Notes under the pieces: model-generated
Database searches by the model: none
The model's input: the letters and a program-made list of their open reading frames with translations, nothing else
Told to the model about the DNA's origin: nothing
Program-made: the position numbers and the translations under genes
Shown here: piece after piece, positions 1-38,410 of the stretch
Position numbering within the stretch: position 1 is the stretch's first letter
How the letters are laid out: each line of letters begins with the position of its first letter
Assembly: GCF_963921235.1 (NCBI RefSeq)
Contig: NC_086097.1
Location: 141,610,001 to 141,674,000, forward strand
Origin: Mobula hypostoma
Taxonomy: Eukaryota
DNA: 64,000 nt
Direction of reading: 5' to 3'

Positions 1-2466
1 AGGTCCCGGGAATTTATCCACTTTAATTTTCCTCAAGACAGCAAGGACCTCCTCCTTTTTGATCTGTACAGTTTCCATGATCTCACTACTTGTTTCCCTT
101 AATTCCATAGACTTCATGCCAGTTTCCTTAGTAAATACAGACGCAAAAAACCCATTTAAGATCTCCCCCATTTCCTTTGGTTCCGCACACAGCCGACCAC
201 TCTGATCTCCAAGAGGACCAACTTTATCCCTCACAATCCTTTTGCTCTTAATATACCTGTCAAAGCTCTTTGGATTATCCTTCACTTTGACTGCCAAGGC
301 AACCTCATGTCTTCTTTTAGCCCTCCTGATTTCTTTCTTAAGTATTTTCTTGCACTTCTTATACTCCTCAAGCACCTTACTTACTCCCTGCTTCCTATAC
401 ATGTCATACAACTCCCCCTTCTTCTTTATCAGAGTTGCAATATCCTTTGAGAACCAAGGTTCCTTATTCCTATTCACTTTGCCTTTAATCCTGACAGGAA
501 CATACAAATTCTGCACTCTCAAAATTTCTCCTTTGAAGGCTTCCCACCTACCGACCACATCCTTGCCAGAGAACAACCTGTCCCAATCCACGCTTTTTAG
601 ATCCTTTCTCATTTCTTCAAATTTGGCCTTCTTCCAGTTAAGAACCTCAACCCTCTGACCAGATCTATCCTTGTCCATGATCAAGTTGAAACTAATGGTG
701 TTATGATCACTGGAACCAAAGTGCTCCCCTACACAGACTTCTGTCACTTGTCCTAACTCGTTTCCTAACAGGAGATCCAATATTGCATCCCCTCTAGTTG
801 GTCCCTCTATATATTGATTTAGAAAACTTTCCTGAACACATTTTACAAACTCTAAACCATCTAGACCCCTAACAGTATAGGAGTCCCAATCAATGTATGG
901 AAAATTAAAATCCCCTACCACCACAACTTTATGTTTCCTGCAGTTGCCTGCTATCTCTCTGCAAATTTGCTCTTCCAAGTCTCGTTGACTATTGGGTGGT
1001 CTGTAATACAATCCCACTAATGTGGCCATACCTTTCCTGTTTCTCAGCTCCACCCATAAGGACTCAGTAGACAAGCCCTCTAATCTGTCCTGCCTGAGCA
1101 CTGCTGTAATATTTTCCCTAACAAGCAATGCTACTTCCCCCACCTTTCATTCCTCTGCCTCGATCACATCTGAAACATCGGAACCCTGGAATATTAAGCT
1201 GCCAGTCCTGCCCCTCCTGTAGCCAAGTTTCACTAATTGCTATAACGTCATAATTCCACGTGTCAATCCACGCCCTCAACTCATCTGCCTTCCCCGCCAT
1301 ACTCCTAGCATTGAAATATATACACCTCAGAAGATTTTTACCACCACTCACAACCTTTCTATTAGCGGATTTGCTTGAACTTTTAACATCATTTATTTTT
1401 ACCCCAGCCACACTGTCAGCTCTGGCACTCTGGTTCCCATCCCCCTGCAAATCTAGTTTAAAGCCCCCCCCAATAGCATTAACAAACCTCCCTGAAACGA
1501 TATTGGTCCCCCTGTAGTTCAAGTGTAACCCGTCTCTCTTGTACAGGTCCCACCTGCCCCAGAAGATGTCCCAATTATCCTGAAATCTGAAACCCTGCTC
1601 CCTACACCAGTTCCTCAGCCACTTGTTCATCCTCCAGTGCATCTTATTCCTACCCTCACTGGCATGTAGCACAGGTAGCAATCCTGAGATTACCACCCTC
1701 GAGGTCCTGCTTTTCAACTTCCTACCAAGCTCTCTATACTCACTCTCCAGGACCTCCTCACTCTTCCTTGCTATGTCATTGGTACCAATGTGCACCATGA
1801 CATCTGGCTGATCACCCTCCCACTTCAGAATGTCATGCAATCGATCAGAGACATCCTTGACCCTGGCACCCGGGAGGCAACAAACCATCCTGGATTCTCT
1901 GTCACGACCACAGAACCTCCTATCTGCACCTCTAACTATCGAGTCCCCTATCACTACCGCTCTCCTCTTTTCCCCCCTCCCTTCTGCACTGCAGAGCCAG
2001 ACTCAGTGCCGGAGATCCGGCTACTGCAGCTTGTCCCAGGTAAGTCATCCCCCCCCAACAGTATCCAATGCGGTATATGCGGTATACTTGTTGTTGAGGG
2101 GAATGGCCACAGGGGAAACCTGCTCTGCCTGCCCTTTCCTCTTCCCTCGCCCGACAGTGACCCAATTTCCTGTCCTCTGCTCCTTTGGCGTAACTACCTC
2201 CCTGTAGCTACTATCTATAATCTCCTCATTCTCCCGAATGATCCGCAGGTCATCCAGCTCCTGCTCCAGTTCCCTAACGCAGTTTGTTAGGAGCTGCAGC
2301 TGGATGCACTTCTTGCAGGTGTCATTGTCAGGGACACCAGAGGGCTCCCTGACTTCCCACATCCTGCAAGAGGAGCATTCCAACATCCTGCCTGGCATTC
2401 TCTCTACGCTAGACAATCTGAATAAAAAACTTACCAGAACCTACCCTGGCCTCTGCCTGTTCTCGC
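1..2466 (-). mobile_element. Young CR1 LINE, 5' part: Zn-finger/coiled coil, SGNH esterase, APE endonuclease; continues beyond window start
   Basis: ORF 2045..2416 has CxxC..CxxC plus a coiled coil; ORF 1118..1954 has GDS, GTND and DGLH blocks then 'CIYFNARS..AISETW' (APE); 1-283 is nearly identical to 58019-58300. Confidence 0.93.
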
Positions 2467-3164: not shown

Positions 3165-4635
3165 CTGTAATTTACACAAATTATACATGATTTTATGAGC
3201 TTTAAATAAATCATTAACATTAGACCTTTATATTCATGACGCAGTTACCAAGAATGAAAAGTTACTTTATATGGGCAGTTTAAACAAGGAAAAGGAAAAA
3301 TTGCATTGATTTTAGTTTTCCACGTCATTAGGACTTTCCAAAGCACTTACAAAAAATTATGTGCTTTTGAAAAATAGTCACTGGATAATATAAAGAATGC
3401 AGCTGTTAAATTGCAATTAGCTCATGTATGCAAAGAAAACAATGTAATAATAACTAAATAATTGACTTTAAATATGGCTGTATTATTTAGTACATGCATA
3501 TTTGCAGTAGGAATAGTGAGAGTCATATGGAAAGAGAGGCTGAAAAAAGTTAGTGATGTGATGCTCTTGCATGCTGGATGTCTGTAGAATAGGCAGATTG
3601 TGGCATCAGTATAAGGTATGGAAAAATTAGAGTTCAGCGAGGTGGCGAACAACACATATTCAATTTATATGTAGCTAGGTGAGTATACGTGTTTAATTTA
3701 GTACCTTTTCTCCTTTTTGACATTTTCAGAGCTAATTTTTGCCCAGTATCCTCAAATATATGGGTCAAGAAATTCAATTTTGCTGCAGTTGCTATGGGAT
3801 ACTAAATGGGCAGTTAATTGACAAGGAGGTGGGTTGTACTTGCTTTCTTCCTGACACACATAGGGCTTCTAGCATTTTATATTTTTGTTTTAATTGCCTG
3901 CAGTGCAGTAATACAACAATCATAAAAATGTTTGATGTTAATCTTGATATTTCTCATATGTTTATTTTTATATTCACTTGATGTACGGTATCTTCAATGC
4001 ATTTTTTTGTTCTTTAAATCCATTTCAGTCTTGATGTTTTATAATTCATGCGTTATATCTCAACCCTCTTGTTTCCCATGGCTGCTTTATTTGGTAGGAA
4101 AGTTCTTTTTATCTGTGCCATATATTGATTTCTAATTAAACTACATAACTTCTGTTAAAAATATTTCTTAGCCTGCATTTTCAGTTTTATTTGATGAGTG
4201 AATCAAAAGTATAAAAGTGAAAATAAAAGGGAAGCAGGAAAGCAAAGAGTAGACATAAGAGCAGACATATTGATAAGTAAGACCAATGATACTCCAGAGC
4301 AGTTGTAAAAATACACAAAGAGCAAAATGTACAGAGTCAGAGGAATTTGTGTAAAGTTCTAAATTAGTATTTTGTGACAGTCTTCGGAAGGTAGGTAAAG
4401 TACTGATTTTTTAAAATTATTTTTTAAGGATATTTGAAGACCTAACATTTATTGTGCATTTCTAACTGGCTTTAAGTGTAATTACAAAAGTCCTAATTAA
4501 GATAAGTGAGTGTGAAATAATATAGGGATAAACATATTGAAAAGAAGTATTAAAAGTATTAAAGATAAAATGACATTCCGAAATGAAAAATATTCCTGAT
4601 GTGAAAAAAGAAAAGGGAAAAGACAATTTCTTTCT

Positions 4636-6290
4636 TTCTCTTTGATTGGGACAGGTTGCTTTCTTGCAAAGGTGTGCTTGATAAGTGGGAGGCCTTCAAA
4701 AGTGAAATTTTGAGAGTACAGAATTTGTATGTTCTTGTCTGAAAGAAAAGCAAGATTAATAGGTTTATAGAACCTTTGTTTTCAGGAGATACTGATGGCA
4801 TGGACCAGATAACAGAGTAGTGTTTGCTATCTTGAGGCAAATTAGGGTGGATAAATCCCCAGGGCCTGACCAGGTGATCCTTCGGTCCTTGTGGTAGGCT
4901 GGTGCAGAAATTGAAAGAGCCCTTGCTGAGATCTTTAAAATGTCCTTAGCAATGGGTGAGGTGCCAGACGATTGGAAGGTAGCTAATGTTGACCCTTTGT
5001 TTAAGAAAGGCTCTAAGAATAAGCTGGGGAAGTATAGGCTAGTGAGCCTTACATTAGTAGTGTGTAAGTTATTGGAAAGTATTCTAAGGTACCGAATATA
5101 TAAGTACCGAGACTGATTATGGATAGTCAATGTGGTTTTGTGCATAGTAGGTTGTGTGTAACCAATTTTACAGAATTTTCGAGGAAGTTACCAGGAAAGT
5201 TGATGAAGGCAAGGCAGTGGATATGGTCTACATGAACTTTAGCAAGGCCTTTGACAAGATCCCACATGGGAGGTTGGTCAAGAAGGTTCAGTCACTTGGC
5301 ATTCAGGATGAGTCAGTAAATTGGATTAGACTTTGGCTTCATGGGAGAAGCCCGAGAGCAGTAGTAGATGATTGCCTCTCTGACTGTAGGCCCATGGTGT
5401 GCAGCAGGGATTGGTGATGGGTCCATTTTTGTTTGTCATTTATATCTATGATCTGGATATTAATGTGGTTAACTGGATCAGCAAATTTCTGGATGGTGCC
5501 AAGATTAAGGGGGTAGTGGAGAGCATGTAAGGCTTTCAAAGCTTGCAACGGATCTGGACCAGCTGGAAAATGAGCTGAAAATGGCAAATGGAAATAACTG
5601 CATAAAAATTTGAGGTTTTGCACTTTGGGTGGACAAATAGTAGGGCATCAAGGAGTGTGGTAGAACAGAGGGATCTGGGCATAAAGATCCCCAATTCCTT
5701 GAAAGTGGTGCCTCAGGTAGTTAGGGTCATAAAGAGAGCTCTTGGCACATTGGCCTTCTTAAATCAAAGCATTTAGTATAGGAGTTGGATATTATGTTGA
5801 AGTTGTATAAAACATTAGTGAGGCCTAATCTGGAGCATTGGGCGCAGTTCTAGTCACCTACCTGCAGGAAAGATATCAATCAGATTGAAAGAGTGAAGAT
5901 AGTTCACAAGGATGTTGCCAGGACCTAAGTTAAGGGGAAAGGTTAAGAGGTTAGGACTTTATTCCCTGGGGCATAGGAGAATGATGGAATATTTGACGGA
6001 GATACATAAAATTATGAGGAGTATAGATAAGGCAAATGCAAACAGTCTTTTTCCACTGAGGTTGGGGTGAGACGAGAACTAGAGGTTATGGGTTAAGGGT
6101 GAAGGATGAAAGGTGAAATGTGATGAAAGATGAAGGGAATATGAGGGGGATGTTAAGAGTGTGGAGAAGCTGCCAGTGGAAGTGGTGGATGTGGATCCAA
6201 TTTAAACATTTAAGAGAGAATTGGATAAGAACATGAATGGCAGGGGCATGGAGGGAAATGGTCCAGATGCAGCTCAATGGGACTAGGCAG
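4636..6290 (+). mobile_element. Degraded CR1 LINE (ORF2 RT to 3' end, with internal deletion)
   Basis: ORF 5154..5417 'EEVTRKVDEGKAVDMVYMNFSKAFDKIPHGRL'; KSPGPD motif near 4853. Confidence 0.88.
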
Positions 6291-11828: not shown

Positions 11829-13060
11829 TCATAGAAACCATAGAAACTACAGCACAGAAACAGGCCTTTTGGCCCTTCTTGGCTGTGCCGAACCATTTTC
11901 TGCTTAGTCCCACTGACCTGCACACGGACCATATCCCTCCATACACCTATTTATTCTTAAATGTTAAAAAAGAACCCGCATTTACCACCTCATCTGGCAG
12001 CACATTCCATATTCCCACCACTCTGTGTGAAGAAGCCCCCCCTAATGTTCCCTTTAAACTTTTCCCCCCTCACCCTTAACCCATGTCCTCTGGTTTTTTT
12101 CTCCCCTTGCCTCAGTGGAAAAAGCCTGCTTGCATTCACTCTATCTATACCCATCGTAATTTTATATACCTCTATCAAATCTCCCCTCATTCTTCTACGC
12201 TCCAGGGAATAAAGTCCCAACCTATTCAATCTTTCTCTGTAACTGAGCTTCTCAAGTCCCGGCAACATCCTTGTAAACCTTCTCTGCACTCTTTCAACCT
12301 TATTTATATCCTTCCTGTAATTTGGTGACCAAAACTGAACACAATACTCCAGATTCGGCCTCACCAATGCCTTATACAACCTCATCATAACATTCCAGCT
12401 CTTATAGTCAAAACTTTGATTAATAAAGGCCAATGTACCAAAGGCTCTCTTTACAACCCTATCTACCTGTGACGCCACTTTTAGGGAATTTTGTATCTGT
12501 ATTCCCAGATCCCTCTGTTCCACTGAACTCCTCAGTGCCTTACCATTAACCCTGTATGTTCTACCTTGGTTTGTCCTTCCAACATGCAATACCTCACACT
12601 TGTCTGTATTAAACTCCATCTGCCATTTTTCAGCCCATTTTTCCAGCTGGTCCAAGTCCCTCTGCAGGCTCTGAAAACCTTCCTCACTGTCTACTACTCC
12701 TCCAATCTTTGTATCATCAGCAAATTTGCTGATCCAATTTACCACATTATCATCCAGATCATTGATATAGATGACAAATAACAATGGACCCAGCACTGAT
12801 CCCTGTGGCACACCACTAGTCACAGGGCCTCCACTCGGAGAAGCAATTCTCTATTACCACTCTTTGGCTTCTTCCATTGAGCCAATGTCTAATCCAATTT
12901 ACCACCTCTCCATGTATACCTAGCGACTGAATTTTCCTAACAAACCTCCCATGCGGGACCTTGTCAAAGGCCTTACTGAAGTCCATGTAGACAATATCCA
13001 CTGCCTTCCCTTCATCCACTTTCCTGGTAACCTCCTCGAAAAACTCCTATAGATTGGTTA
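11829..13060 (-). mobile_element. Young 5'-truncated CR1 (RT to 3' tail)
   Basis: ORFs 11990..12823 (GVPQGSVLGP, FADD) and 12816..13019; near-identical to the copy at 56477-58300. Confidence 0.95.
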
Positions 13061-13945
13061 ATAGATTGGCGTGGGTGGGACAGGCGGATACAAAGTTGTG
13101 AACATCCTGGGACATAGTTGGCCACTAAAATTGTCTCTTTATAAACTCCTGAATCCAATGAATTCCCAGGTACTCAGCCAGACGAGAGGAGTGACCCCAT
13201 TCCAACACTTTGAACGCACCGCAGCAGGGATAAACAGCCAGTTGGGAGGAACCCCATCCGGGCCTGGATCTGGTTGTTGGGTGGCCCTCACCTCTGCCTC
13301 TATTCCCCAGATCACCTGAGCAGCGATACATGAGTGAGGAAGAATGGACTCTGGATCAGTATTGTCCTCAGATCTGTCAAACTGCCGGGAGGATGATAAG
13401 TGAGGACGAAAATGAACCGTGTGAAGAAGAGAGCCCACCGGACTTGACGAGAGTTGAGTCTCTTAGCATCCTGGATTTAAGGGAGGTTCTTGTGATTTGT
13501 CCAGACCAAGAATGGATGCTCTGTTCCCTCCAGCCAGTGTTGCCATTCTTCCAGGGCCTCCTTGACAGCCAGAAGCTCCCAGTTCCCAAAGTCGTAATTC
13601 TCGGCCGGAGTCAAGCAATGGGAAAGAAAGGCACAGGGGTGCAGCCGGCTATCTGCAGATGAGCGCCGAGAGAGGGCAGCTCCAATGCCTACATCGGATG
13701 CATCCACCTCGACAATGAATAGCTGAGATGGGTCTGGGTGTTACAGCAGTGGGGCAGTGGTGAAATGTCGCTTTAGCTTGGAAAATGCTTGGTTGGCTTC
13801 GTCCATCCAGTGGAATCCTGACGAGATCTCCTTGGTGAATGCATTAATTGGAGCCATGATAAAGCCAAAATTCCAGATGAAGCGGCAATAAAAGTTCACA
13901 AACCCCATGAAGCGCCGTACCTGTTTGTCTGTAGATGGTTTGGGG

Positions 13946-14701
13946 TGTTACGTGTCCACAGTTTCGTTTTCCTGGGAGTCCATAGTTTTGTTTACTGTGG
14001 GCGTCACGTGTCCCCAGTTTCGTTACTGGGAGTTCACAGTTTCATTTCTGTGAGCGTTACCTTATGACGTATGCCGACGGTATAAAAGAAAGGTGGACAG
14101 TGCTGAGGAGTCGAAGGAAAGAGAGAGAGAGTGAAGATCACAGGCTTCGAGCTATCTGGGAACAGCTCACGATCGAGAAGGGTAAAGTCTAATGCTTACC
14201 CAAACCCAAAGGATTGGGTTAATCAGCAGCACACTGTGCATTGTGGAGACGTGTCTGTCCTTCGTATGATCCATGGGCGTGGATTTCGTGACAGTCACTT
14301 TGTGAAATTGCTCTTAGTGGGCTTCGGAACAGTATTCCTCGGCTGGGATCTTCGGTAACCGTCTCTTTGTTCGTTAGCCGTGGAATCTTTGGAATTCATC
14401 GTGATCGCCTTGTCGCTGCATTGTGAATCCACAAGTCTCTCCTCTCACCTATTTCACGAATTACTGGGACTCTCTGAACTGCTACTTTAAGACTGTGCTT
14501 GAGTAAAATTTGTTAAGAACACGTTGTAAGTTTGACTGTAAGGGAGCTATAGACGCATAACACTGTTAATTTCTGTTTAAGAAAGTAGTTTATTTAATTT
14601 TCTATATTTTTGAGTAGACGTAAATAAATATAGTGGTTTTAATATTAAAACCCAACTCAATTTGTCATCTCTTGCTGCTGGTACGTTACGAATTTGTAAC
14701 G
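13946..14701 (+). mobile_element. Probable solo LTR inserted in the Gypsy pol
   Basis: Begins tgttac, ends gtaac(g); flanked by G-runs; TATAAAA at 14081, AATAAA at 14623; host pol 'AVAEWP|KPSTDKQVRRF' is split here. Confidence 0.7.
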
Positions 14702-14798: not shown

Positions 14799-16360
14799 CA
14801 GGTTTCCCCCGCCATCCGAAGGTACAGCGTTCCTGTGAAACGGTTCGTAAGCCGAAATGTCGTAAAGCAAAGAAGCAAATACCATTTATTTATATGGGAA
14901 AATTTTGTGAGCGTTCGCAGACGCAAAAATAACCTACCAAATCGTGCCAAATAACACATAAAACCTAAAATAACAGTAACATATAGTAAAAGCAGAAATG
15001 ATATGATAAATACACAGCCTATATAAAATAGAAATACTTCTCTACAACGATTGCCTGCACAGATCTCCGTAGCAAAAATCTCATGCAAGCGCTCTCGGCA
15101 GAAAATCTCACGCAAGCACTGTTGGCATAAACGCACTCTCCGGTAACCTTTAAACTATGAAGCAGCCAAATGTACCAAATAACACGTAAAAATACACAGC
15201 CTATATAAAGTAGAAATAATATATGTACAGTGTAGTATCACTTACCGGAATTGGGAAAACAGCGCCGAGCACACTGATGATGGTGTGTTAGACTGAGTCG
15301 TCGCAGACTGGGTGGTGCAGTAGCCCCCACCCTCCGGGCTGCAACCCGATACATTGCCGCGAAGAACGCAGTGGTAGCCAGGAGGCACACAGCACATCGT
15401 TAAGAAAAAAGCCTAAATAAAAATGGTAATTAATTAGGTGCTGCCCGGCACGTAAATGTCGGCGCAGATCAGAGGCGATTGTCGATTGCATCGCCTCTGA
15501 TCTGGGCTGACAATTACGTGCTAGGCGTCATCTAATTAATTAGCATGTTTATTTCAACTTTTTTCTTAAAGATGTGCTGTGTGCCTCCCGGCTACTGCTG
15601 TGTTCTTCGCGAATCGGTACAGTATCTGTCCGGGGCCTGGGTGTTGGGGTGGTGGGACACAGGGGTGTCATCTCATCGTCGATCAGGGCAGGCAGCTCAT
15701 CTTCTCCTGTGACTGCCCACCTCGAATGTCAAAGGTTGAGGTTCATCATCTGCTGTGGCTGATGTGGAAGGCCTGCTTGACTGCTGAGCTTCATGCATTT
15801 TTCTATCATACAGTTGTTTGTAAGCACTCAAACCATCCTGCAAATATCCCCTAAACCTACGTACCCTTTCAAAATTAAAGTCGTACTTTATCATTGCAGC
15901 GAAAATCTCACGCAGTTGCTTCACTTTCTGCATTCGGTTTCAAGTGTTATCCTTTCCTCTTCCAATTGCATCAGCTCTTCATCTATCAGTTCTTGGTCAT
16001 GGGATGCCAAAACCTCTTCAACATCATCCTCGTCAACTTCCACAAGCCAAACTCACTTTGTCCTTGCTTCGTTCACCACGATCGAAACGCTTAATTATGT
16101 CTAGTTTTATGCTAAGTGTAACACCCTTACTCTTCCAGGCTTTTCCAACACCTTAGAACTCATCTTGCTAATGGCTGCTCAATGCAATGTGTTAAGGCAA
16201 TGCCGTTCCGAATCCGAGGGAGAGCGGCTGCTCGGGGCACGCGCTGCCTTTCTTCGTAACAGTGAAAACACCTTCTGAAAGCAAAAACAGGGTACTAATG
16301 TAGGTCTTTCGTAACAGTGAGGTTTCATAAAGCGTACGTTCGAAAAGCGGGGGACACCTG
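14799..16360 (-). mobile_element. Tigger/pogo-like DNA transposon deletion derivative
   Basis: TIRs caggtttcccccgc / gcgggggacacctg; TA TSDs; host RT 'EKCV|FHKDQV' rejoins exactly; acidic transposase C-terminal remnant 'EVDEDDVEEVLASHDQEL'. Confidence 0.88.
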
Positions 16361-19300
16361 TACACATTTTTCAGGCTTGGCATACCGGTTATTTTCAAGA
16401 AGGCATCTGAGTACTCTTCGGACATGCTCCTGATGAGAGCCGGAATAGATAAGGATGTCATCTAAATACACAAACCGGTTCAACATGTCCCTGAGCACAT
16501 CATTAACCAAGGCCTGGAATACAGCCAAACCAAAAGGCATCACCAGGTATTCATAGTGGCTATTAGAGGTGCTGAAAGCCGTTTTCCACTCATCCCCTTC
16601 TCTTATGCGAATCAGATTGTAAGCATTGCGCAGATCAATTTTAGAAAATATTGTTGCTCCCTGGAGATGTTCAAATGCAGATGCCAGCAAGGGAAGAGGG
16701 TAGCAGTTCTTCACAGTGATGCTGTTCAGGGTCTGATAATTGATGCAGGGATGGAGCTTGCCATCTTTCTTGCTCACAAAGAAGAAGCCTGCTCCTGCCT
16801 GCAAGGTTGACAGATGGATAAACTCCATGCTCAGTTCCTTCTTAATGCACTCCTCCATGGCCACCGTTTCAGGACGAGAGAGCTAAAAGAGCTGGCCCTG
16901 GGGAGGACTAGTGCCAGGTAGGAGGTCTATGGCACAGTCACATGGCCGGTGTGGGGGCAGGGTGGTGGCTCTTCTTTTACTGAAAACATCAAGGAGATCC
17001 GCATATTCAGCCGGAATCCCAGACAGGTCCACATCCTTAGCTGACACAGGAGGGGATTCATGGAACGGAGCTTGAATTGGACGTAGACAGGCATGCCGGG
17101 CCCCACACTTGGAGTACCTTCAGAGACCAATCGACCCGTGGGTTATGTCGGGATACCAGGGGAGACTAAATACCAGTGGCAGTTCAGGTGAATTAACCAG
17201 ATAGAAAGATATTTCTTCATGATGGTTGCCTTCGAGCACCAGTTGGAGGGGTTGGGTGGAAAGGTGGATCTGGCCGGAACCCAGAGGTCGACCATCCAGT
17301 GCCTTGACATTGATCTTTTCTCTTAATCCCTGAGTTGGAACTCCCCATCTTTGAGCAAGAGAAATGTCCATAAGATTCCCGGCTGCACCGGAGTCAATAA
17401 ATGCCTTAAGTTCATGGGTCTGAGACCTCCATGACGAGGAAGCTGCAAGCATTACAGAATTAGGGGAAGCTGACTGACTGAAGAGAGAACTGACCCGTCA
17501 GGATGCCCCTCCCTGCTGACGGGTATTCTCTTTTACTGGACGCTTGGAACATGCCACCCAGAAGTGACCTGAATCACCACAGTAAAGGCAGGAACCCATT
17601 CTCCGGCGCCACTTTCATTCGTCCTGAGACAGGCGCATGGGCCCCACTTGCATAAGCTCCTCCATGGGCTGGGTGCTGGGTGGTGAGGGAGGTGAGGGCG
17701 AGGAAAGATGGTGATCTGGCGGCGCATAGGAAATTTGAAACATTCTTTCCCTGCGCCACTCAATTACCCAGTCGTCAACTCGAATAGCCAGATCAATCAG
17801 ATCATCCAGACTATCCTGCTCATCCCAGACAGCGATCTCATGCCGGACCCCTATATTCAGTCCACGCCGGAAGGCAGTGATGAGAGATCTCTCATTCCAT
17901 ACTGTCTCTACTGCAAGGGAATAGAATTTGACTGCATAGACTCACCGTTCCTCTGCCTTGGTGCAGATCCAAGAGTTGGCGGGAAGCCTCCTGACCCTGT
18001 ACCGGAAGATCGAAAACCCTCCTTAACTCCACCACAAAATGTCAGAACAACTGGGCTGCGGGGTATCCTTGCTCCCGTAAAGCGTTGAATAGGCTGAGTG
18101 GAGGTCCGTCAAGAAAATTGACCATGTACGCCAATTTTCTCGCATCATCACCAAAATGACCAGGCTGGGCTTGGAATGTCAGCTCGCATTGGGTAATAAA
18201 ATTCCTGCAAACATCAGGATCATGAGAATATCTGCCTGGTGGTGGAATATTCGGTTCCTGAACAGTCGTGGGAGTCGGATCTGGTCCAGGTGCAGGAGCG
18301 GGAGCATTAGTAGCAGAGATTGTCGGGGCAGCAGGAAAGGAGAACCTGTGAGATGCTGGAAGTGGGACTGAAGTGGCCTGACGCTGCTGAATTGAGCTGG
18401 CAAGAACGTTAATGACTGTCAGCTGATGCTGGCTGTTCACAGTAAGTAAGTACGTGGACGGTGGCTGTGAGTGCAGAAATCGCAAACACCTGAGTCCGAT
18501 TGTCTGAGGTGAGCTGTTGAACAGCTGTGGCTATGGACGATACCTGTTCCTCCAAGTGAGATGGGTTTATTGGCACGAGGTTATCTGCCTCATTGCCTCC
18601 GTAACTTCACTGAGAACAGATTCCATTGCCTGTGGCTTGTCTCCTACCTGACCAATGAACCTCACAGCCAAGTTAAGCTGCTCTCTCTCTGCTGGGTCCA
18701 TCTTTGTTTTTCGAGACTTGCTGTTACTGTGTTCAGATATGGCGCAAGTGCGAGTGAGAGACACTGAGGCAGACTTTAATACAAACAGTATTAAAGGGAA
18801 AATAAAACAATAAACGCTAGGCCAAACAGGGTTGTTAACTAAAACTCTCAAAAGGAAAACGAAGCCTATACTGCGGCTGAAAAGAATATCTAAACATTAA
18901 ACGAATACTACTAGTCTTCAGGGTCAGTTGATTTGAAAGTCCAGTAGCTTAGGGAAGGCCGAATGCAAGACACCAGCAAAGCGTTCCTTTGCTCTGTCCA
19001 AGTCTCGACAAGCACTACGATGACAAGAATGGAGTTAAATACTATCACAATTAAATAATAATTACCTGACACGTGCAAATTCACAAGCGTAATTTCCATA
19101 TCTACTGTGCTGCCGAATCCATGATTGTGACAATAACCTTTGGAAATTACATTCTTCATGGAAGCTGTGTAGTCAAAATGACAAATCCTTCTTAAACCTC
19201 ACTTTTAGATTTAGAGCATACTGTTCAGCAATCTTCCTATTATTAGGCAAGTTAACCTCTTTCTTTCTCAAAGGTAAACTAATCTGATAGTGGCCATCAA

Positions 19301-22300
19301 CCAGTTTTGCAGAATTCATAACCATCTCCATGAACTTGTGATCTTCTCTTGACAAACCAGGTTATTCATCCAGAATGCATTCAGGGAAGTCTGCCTTGAA
19401 CTACCACTGCTAAAGTTCATCCAAGTTCAAAACTGAGATCCTGTTATCTGTCAGCTCTGGCTGTGCAGTCCCTTCCATCACCATGGTCTCCTTTCAGTGG
19501 TCCATTCACAGTCCAACCCAACATTGTTCTAATTCCATAATGTCCATTATTAACACTGTGAATCACTGGCAATGGCTGCAATGCTTTAGGTACATTTGTC
19601 CATATTAGCAGGTCAATTTCTGAATCTATCTCTGGCAGTTGGACATGTTTCTAGTGAGACCATCCTTGGAGATCCCTCTATCATCGAATGTTCGCTTTGT
19701 TGGCAGGTATACTTTCCTGCATATAAATACGAGGTAGTTCACAATAGATTTCACCATCTAAGCCAGCCACTTCCAACCCTGAAACAATGTAGCTACTCAA
19801 GATCTTCTCTTGACCCATGGTGTGTAAGAGAAAGCATGTTCTTTTTCCTATGAGGTTGAGCTTGTTCATGAGGCTCGTTGTGCAGAATACCGCTGTACTT
19901 TCTTGATCTAGGAAGGCATAAGTAACCACTGTCCTGTTACCCTTCTCAGACTACACCTGTACTGGAACTATGGGAAGTTTACAATCATGATCACCAGCCC
20001 CTGTAAGGCCATTAGGTACCAGTGCACTACTCACTACTGTGTGTGCTTCTATCAAAGATTGTTTTGGTTCTCCTCCCTTTTCATTAGAGTGAATATGCTG
20101 GAATGTTTGCTTTTGCATACTTTGCATGAAAGACGCTTCCTGCAGTCCTTGCTGATGTCTCCTGTACACAAACAGCCAAAGCAGACACCATTTTCTTTTA
20201 GGAAGGCAATCTTCTGCAATGAGCCCATTTCTCCAGCACAGGGCATGAATCCAATTCATGTTCAACCTCATAGAACAGACAAACCCTTCTGGCTGATGAA
20301 ACCCTTCCATTAGTTCCAGGTTCAGTTTTAGTTTTACCTCTCACAGTGGCCACAGTAGTGGCAAAGTAGTTCCTTTAGCCTTAGAACAATGCTATATCAC
20401 TGCTTATTGACGATGATATAGCCTCCTGTGTATTCGTACATACTGAGTGTGTAGCAATCTTTACTTGCCTTTCTATAAAATCAGCAATATCAGTGAAGGC
20501 AATCTTACATTTGTGCCTTTCTTACAGTTTAGAGACCACCATTCTCTGCTTATTCCTAAGCATATAGGGAAATTGTTTTACAACAATCAACATATTAGCA
20601 GGCATGCCATGGCATTACAACAGCCTCTAAGAGAACAACTGTAGTCTTGAAGAGCTCTCAATTCTTCAGATTTGATAGATACTCAAGAAAGAGCCTTTTG
20701 TATTTAGGTGGATACAATTTTCTGTTCAAGATAAAATGTTCCTGTAGTAAAGCCTTAGCTTTTAGATATCCTAGCTTAGGGTCAACCTGCTGGCAACTTA
20801 TAACAAATTCTAAAGGGCAACCTCTAGTGTACTGTTCAAAGAAATAGAAGCAGTCATTAAAGCTACCATCAAAGATTTGAACCTCTCTTTTAGGCAAAGA
20901 TGAAACGTATTACATTTCATTTCATTTTTCTTCCTCATAATATCAACAGTACTATTTTGACTTCTATCATCTAAAACAAGCGAGTTTCCATGCTATAAGT
21001 TAATGTCCCCATGAGCACTTTGAACTTCTGGTTATGATATAGGTTCAGAGTGCCTCATTAGTGCGGGATTTGAGTAAACACCCTGAACTACTTCTTGGGG
21101 GTCTTATTCATGTTTCCCAGACACTTGAGGAGTGGATAAATCAGCATTGGTATTGGGTGTTTCTGTTTTCCTTGTACCTTTTCAAAATAGGAACTCACAC
21201 AGTAGGATTGTCCTGCTGGAGCATTTTGAGTACTTGCCATACCAAGCCCTTAGCACATTAACTTTAGCCAGATGTGTGACAATTCTCTTCCAACTTAAGC
21301 TGCTCCTTACTTTTCCGTAGCTGCTCCTTTTGCTCTTCCAGTGCATGTGTGTTCTTTAATCATCATGTGATTATTGCAGCTAAATCAGCCTCTGTTTTAA
21401 TATAACGCATGCAGAGGAGGTAGTAGATACAGAAGATATTCTTCCTGCAACAGAGCTTCAAGCACTGACATTAGACACTCTGTTGTTTGGTTTCTTGTCA
21501 TCCTGTGGGTCACCTGCTGAATGAAAAGTCAAAATATGCCTTGGAATTTGAGAAACATTGTCTAATGGAAGGTGAGACACATATTCACTTGTTGCAGCAA
21601 TATGACCTTCAATGGAACGTTTGGTTCAACCATTGTTTCACATCCCCAATGAATGCCTTACAATAGCTATCAATGTCTGAAAAACATCCATTTTGTTATT
21701 CTTGTTTAAGCTTGCAAAGAAATGAGATTAACATGTGATGTTGCTTTGCTATAGCCTCACAGAGATTAGTCAAATCCACAAGATAAGATTGCACTTGTAA
21801 GGTGTGTTCTTTAATTTTCATAACATCATTAATTAATTGTATTAAACCTATAATTTTGTTCACATTTGTTTCATGCTCTTTTTGAAAACTTTCAATTAGA
21901 TTAGCCTTCGTTTAGCTTCAGTTTCTCTTTTGCAAGCCCAAACTGCAGGGTGTTTGGGACCAATTCCATGCTTCAATACACTCATGTTACTTCCTCTAGT
22001 TAAGCAACTTGCAATTAACTCTTTGTTCACCCACAACTCCGGCAGTATTCGATTCAATAAATGTAGTCAATAAACAAAATGTCCACGTATCCACTGCACT
22101 TAAACCAGGCCGAACAAACAGCCTTCAATTCAAATACTGGCAACCGGAACATTTCATCACTTCAATAAAACAAGGTGACAAACCCTTAGGGAAACACCAC
22201 ATAATTAAGCAGTGGTCCCCCAATGGATAGACAGCACTGATCATTGAAACTATGCTCAAAGCACAAATGCATAGCATGAATCAACAAAAGATTGCAGATA

Positions 22301-37990: not shown

Positions 37991-38221
37991 CAGACTGGGA
38001 ACTGAACATCAACATGGAGCTGGGACTTACCCTTCGAAAAGCTGGGACTCATCTTCAACACGACACCAACATGTGACAGGACAGTGCATAGACATAGAGC
38101 CGGGACTTATACTTAGACAAGCCGGGACTCAACTTCATCTCCACACCAAGGTGGGACAGGACCACCCGTCGCGTAACAGCAGAACCGCCGGACTTACCCA
38201 ACAGAGGCAAAGACAAGACAA

Positions 38222-38410
38222 CACAAGACAGGTCCCCCCGCAGGGCAACGGCAGAACGGCCTGACTTACCCCACGGAGGTGAGGACAAGACAGATCCCCC
38301 TGCAGGGCAACGGCAGAACGGCCTGACTTACCCCACAGAGGTGAGGACAAGACAGATACCCTCTCAGGGCAACGGCAGAACAGCCTGATCTACCCTATGG
38401 AGGCAAGGAC
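38222..38410. repeat. About 61-bp minisatellite, three copies
   Basis: Unit caagacag..ccc..cagggcaacggcagaacggcctgacttacccca.ggaggtgagga. Confidence 0.9.

Follow-up and report, generated by a model that had tools for sequence, protein, structure and literature searches.

The window, by which we mean the whole stretch of 64,000 nucleotides that was analysed, contains on its minus strand the 5' end of a dead vertebrate sushi-type Gypsy retrotransposon. The features of this copy are given below in the order in which the element reads them.

18722..19132, minus strand: 5' LTR, 411 nt, of the form TG...CA
19051..19057, minus strand: upstream TATTTAA box, 49 nt before the self-primer and identical to the box at 19041
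19035..19041, minus strand: TATTTAA box, predicted TATA box, 33 nt before the self-primer
18999..19008, minus strand: predicted self-primer, equal to the predicted RNA 5' end; exact complement of 18711-18720
18968..18981, minus strand: LTR half of a candidate leader helix whose other half is 18687-18699; its status as a family feature is doubtful
18886..18896, minus strand: LTR half of a candidate U5 helix whose other half is 18730-18740, with a stability at chance level
18775..18780, minus strand: ATTAAA, predicted polyadenylation signal, 59 nt before the LTR end
18711..18720, minus strand: primer-binding position without TGG, read from the sequence
17498..18701, minus strand: broken gag with frameshifts and stops, from translation and similarity to the gag of the relatives L022-L024
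16361..17497, minus strand: broken protease and reverse transcriptase (gag-asp_proteas, below the curated cut-off; RVT_1, E 4e-21)
13053..13945, minus strand: RNase H and integrase zinc finger (RT_RNaseH, RT_RNaseH_2, Integrase_H2C2)

On the minus strand, the LTR begins with TGTCAC at 19132 and ends with TAACA at 18722. The 5' boundary is marked by loose contig ends at 19132 in all four of the runs aligned (75, 57, 84 and 5 contigs) and also by a drop in depth. The flanks of the contigs that leave at this position are unrelated, with a flank agreement of 0.33-0.57. No second LTR was found within the 64-kb window and, thus, the 3' boundary is taken to lie at 18722 on the basis of the CA end and the same arrangement in relatives. 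The surroundings of the element at 19133-20700 (minus strand) are a decayed coding region, which we take to resemble a BEL/Pao gag-protease; this region gave no Pfam hit.

The order of the parts is that of Ty3/Gypsy elements: LTR, gag, protease, reverse transcriptase (RT), RNase H and integrase, the last being present as its zinc finger only. The gag translation gave no Pfam hit and has a CX2CX4HX4C knuckle near its end. The element ends with the 13053..13945 part, and the integrase core, the chromodomain and the 3' LTR are all missing; similarity to the full-length relatives L022-L024 stops at 13053-13086. This similarity skips two insertions, at about 16360-14799 and about 14701-13946. The former (14799-16360) interrupts the RT gene with 1.56 kb of sequence that has terminal inverted repeats, is flanked by TA at either end and contains an inner palindrome with 122-nt arms (15358-15611); it is presumably a Tigger/pogo-type DNA transposon. 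The latter (13946-14701), of about 755 nt, has short inverted ends and short internal repeats and resembles a solo LTR from a different family. Due to the stops, frameshifts, insertions and lack of a 3' LTR, the window copy cannot self-prime itself. Elsewhere, the window is filled with many LINE-like RT fragments, and this LINE content hints at a cartilaginous fish as a possible host. At 1118-2002 (minus strand), an open reading frame has a GDSL esterase domain followed by the start of an endonuclease, as at LINE ORF1/ORF2 junctions, and a 62-nt unit is found in four tandem copies at 38151-38408.

The family was placed with an RT tree of 56 segments and 161 residues, which contained no named sushi-ichi or Tf1 sequence. 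The window RT fell in a 100/97 clade of 18 rows, consisting of named fish and Xenopus proteins, two unnamed proteins and the relatives L022, L023, L024 and L030; all the named members are from fish or Xenopus. The best named RT matches were from teleosts and Xenopus (59-71% identity). Chromo and SH3_Tf2-1 domains are present in L022, L023 and L024, and DUF4939 is also present in L022 and L023. The chromodomain is therefore carried by all three full-length relatives (59-65% RT identity), and the corresponding region has been lost from the window copy. By RT placement and the domains of its relatives, the family is consistent with membership in the vertebrate branch of the Tf1/sushi chromoviruses, which supports the sushi-type label of the original prediction.

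It had also been claimed that, 1 nt past the 5' LTR, there is no TGG-starting tRNA primer-binding site (PBS) and that the sequence at this position has an exact 10-nt complement inside the LTR, extending to 12 of 13 nt. Both claims were confirmed from the letters. After a 1-nt spacer at 18721, the minus strand at 18720-18711 reads CAAGTCTCGA, and its exact complement, TCGAGACTTG, is found at 19008-18999. With extension, 12 of 13 nt pair, and 14 of 16 do so over the arms 18705-18720/18999-19014. A complement of at least 10 nt starting at most 4 nt from the LTR end was obtained in 36 of 20,000 dinucleotide shuffles of the LTR, and in 3 of 1,000 when the shuffling of the window LTR was repeated. 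When the whole LTR was scanned in 16-nt windows, the PBS formed its best duplex (-16.6 kcal/mol) with the windows over 19008. tRNA-primed Gypsy elements have a TGG-starting PBS complementary to a tRNA 3' end, and the window element does not. What it has is the arrangement of Tf1/sushi elements, with no tRNA PBS and a PBS complementary to its own LTR.

Taken from one old copy, such a complement could be a chance match or the remains of a decayed TGG site. The window copy is heavily decayed and, although a 10-mer has only a chance of about 0.2% per element, many elements were read. The check that the original prediction had proposed, covariation between the LTR 10-mer and the PBS, was run across relatives. 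Alignment scans provided 21 and 79 loci, the second scan covering 2 of 64 parts; a single-protein scan of viral_contigs gave no match. LTR pairs were looked for in 64 of these 100 loci, and the 10 with a 5' LTR end fixed at CA were used. L029 was excluded, as its repeat has no CA end and looks like coding sequence, and its pairing of 6-7 nt is at chance level. L026, L066, L071 and contigs with terminal overlaps only were excluded because the LTR end was not fixed, as were loci without a repeat.

Eight of the 10 relatives pair with their own LTR over 9-12 contiguous Watson-Crick bases. Counting L046/L059 and L070/L085 once each, seven of eight distinct families pair. L070 and L085, which are one family, have 6 Watson-Crick pairs only, and L070 reaches 9 with two G-U pairs. 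The 3' LTRs of L022 and L099 match in full, but their 5' LTRs do so over 7 nt only (118 of 1,000 shuffles each), and for L023, L024 and L087, only the 3' LTR is complete. The two LTRs of L022 (873-1262 and 5597-6058) are alike in their last 114 nt only (87% agreement), and L022 is either a recombinant element or a chimeric contig. The paired letters vary between families, and none of 106 cross pairings reached 9 nt (mean 5.1, maximum 8). The pairing is thus specific to each element's own LTR and covaries across relatives. That seven of eight related families pair likewise with other letters largely refutes a chance or decayed match, which we consider extremely improbable; the family copies described next also speak against it.

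Part of the stretch is present in twenty runs of nine organisms, and the family is high-copy in three organisms. Four of 24 runs were aligned to 18560-19200 at 80% likeness, with 4,620-5,489 contigs aligned per DNA run. Among the 40 variant rows listed of 207, none falls in 18711-18720 or 18990-19064; the contigs behind these rows are short, with the two 10-mers never on one piece, and rare variants were dropped. The original prediction would have been refuted by loss of the complementarity in other copies, and on the rows listed both 10-mers appear to be kept in the three organisms. In each DNA run, 50-64 contigs diverge from the window copy exactly at 18999, the 3' end of the primer, which may only be the mark of a subfamily indel. 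In 8-10 contigs per DNA run, one additional base adjoins the PBS and would add an 11th pair, the length found in Tf1.

A different primer is conceivable for the same site. A fragment of a host tRNA could prime the family, with the LTR complement being incidental, and half-tRNA priming is known in Ty1/copia lineages (PMC6317226, available in part). Without TGG, no intact tRNA 3' end can bind. Furthermore, the PBS letters vary by relative and track the relative's own LTR, as a shared host primer would not, and Rfam gave no match over the LTR; ARAGORN returned nothing relevant. Priming by a tRNA fragment is, therefore, very hard to credit.

The start of the transcript bears on how the complement would be used. 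The TATTTAA box at 19041-19035 was correctly reported in the original prediction, but the second, identical box at 19057 was overlooked; the distance to 19008 is 33 nt from the former and 49 nt from the latter. Since there are two identical boxes, the start site is less clear than was claimed. Judging from the spacing, the transcript probably begins at about 19008-19011, which is 30-33 nt past the box at 19041. A start from the box at 19057 would fall near 19025 and leave the LTR complement internal. A TATA-like box lies 29-34 nt upstream of the pairing in the window and in 6 of 10 relatives, namely L022 (a weak word), L023, L024, L046, L059 and L076, in which it is the best TATA-like word within the 15-55 nt searched. 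The spacing is 42 nt in L099, 49 nt in L070 and about 60 nt in L087. The geometry of TATA box, start site and PBS, which had been called unusually clear, is instead typical of the clade, as most relatives have the 29-34 nt spacing.

These spacings also apply to the possibility that the pairing is real but forms a structural helix within a longer RNA, with an internal cut or another small RNA providing the primer. The two identical boxes and the spacings in L099, L070 and L087 would allow for this. On the other hand, the distance from the best TATA-like word to the first paired base is 29-30 nt in the three vertebrate relatives, as expected for an RNA tip, and Tf1 uses its first 11 bases (PMC7175516, available in part). 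We regard an internal helix of this kind as quite unlikely.

The family very likely self-primes, with the 5' tip of the RNA at about 19008-19011 pairing with the PBS, RNase H cutting and the freed end acting as the primer. Support for this reading, which was that of the original prediction, comes from the PBS/LTR pairing and its covariation across relatives. The RNA would start at about 19008-19011, and its first 10-11 bases would fold onto 18711-18720 across a 278-nt loop. By analogy with Tf1, the RNase H of the element would then cut the RNA just after the primer (PMC7175516 and PMC5341516, both available in part), and the freed 3' end would prime minus-strand DNA through U5 and R, again as in Tf1.

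Splicing was considered separately. A primer made by splicing was ruled out, as the complement is contiguous in the DNA, and no splice joint was seen among the 15 listed of 80 in X19, a run guessed to be RNA. At 18878-18872 (minus strand), past the self-primer and ahead of the poly(A) signal, there is a pyrimidine run with GCCGCAG that resembles a splice acceptor. Such an acceptor-like run is found in three of four vertebrate families: the window, the 3' LTR of L022 (about 5838) and L024 (about 4742). It is absent from L023, the 5' LTR of L022 and two LTRs outside the vertebrate clade, and no clear splice donor was found in the window copy.

Tf1 needs three helices: the primer pairs with the PBS, and sequence next to the PBS forms two further helices with the LTR (PMC10085805, in the part available). 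In the window copy, both candidate flanking helices are nested as the Tf1 pretzel requires. The leader helix (18981-18968/18699-18687) was equally stable in 3 of 150 shuffles and the U5 helix (18896-18886/18740-18730) in 35 of 150, although the real sequence was scanned more finely than the shuffles, a bias in its favour. Across six elements, a count of at most 7 of 150 shuffles was reached on the leader side in the window, L023 and L059, and on the U5 side in L059 only. Most family copies differ at 18969, 18973 and 18978, and the changes at 18973 and 18978 break two pairs of the leader helix; most also differ at 18730 and 18735 in the U5 helix. No compensating changes were found in either candidate helix among the 40 variant rows listed of 207. 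An unconstrained fold of 19014-18680 contained no primer/PBS helix and did not outperform shuffles (z 0.24); since the pretzel is a pseudoknot, little weight can be given to this result. Neither flanking helix of the pretzel can, therefore, be regarded as established for the window family.

One could suppose that the compact Tf1 pretzel is dispensable for self-priming in vertebrate sushi elements, with no conserved flanking helices and a primer that reaches its site over a loop of about 280-400 nt, which an intron in R might shorten. We consider this general statement unlikely. If it were true, the window family, which is high-copy and common to several related species, would be a natural test set.

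Self-priming is described as a common feature of Tf1/sushi elements (PMC10085805), self-primers have been described in such elements of yeast and vertebrates (PMC6317226), and the mechanism, demonstrated for Tf1, has been implicated in elements ranging from fungi to vertebrates (PMC4600332). Butler 2001, as cited in PMC10085805 and PMC6317226, proposed self-priming in vertebrates from an LTR-complementary PBS. These sources, each available in part, agree with the original prediction, which had referred to self-priming in Tf1 and its proposed extension to vertebrate Tf1/sushi elements while giving too little weight to the fact that this is a textbook signature. In the literature searched, outside of which most subscription papers lay, we found no experimental test of self-priming in a vertebrate and nothing on self-priming in cartilaginous fish.

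The window element resembles the vertebrate Tf1/sushi elements in its Gypsy domain order, CCHC gag knuckle, lack of a tRNA site and LTR-complementary PBS, and its RT belongs to a vertebrate clade in which the full-length members have a chromodomain. It differs only in its own primer letters and probably its host lineage, in a comparison that included no named sushi-ichi sequence, and, unlike full elements, the window copy is truncated before the chromodomain. As in Tf1 and Tf2 of Schizosaccharomyces pombe and Tj1 of S. japonicus, the PBS lies just after the 5' LTR and is complementary to a stretch of the LTR. The window has 10 pairs (11 in some family copies) compared to 11 in Tf1 (PMC7175516, available in part). 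According to the available part of PMC10085805, self-priming in Tf1 has been shown by experiment and needs the three-helix pretzel, whereas for the window family the two flanking helices are not established. The same source describes the fission-yeast gags as having no CCHC motif, in contrast to the window gag.

The element is what is expected for its clade, and the mechanism is already published for the Tf1/sushi group. The finding adds one vertebrate family, probably from a lineage little studied in this respect, to a mechanism proposed for the whole Tf1/sushi group. The many copies of the family give an exact prediction, that capped 5' ends would be found at 19008-19011.
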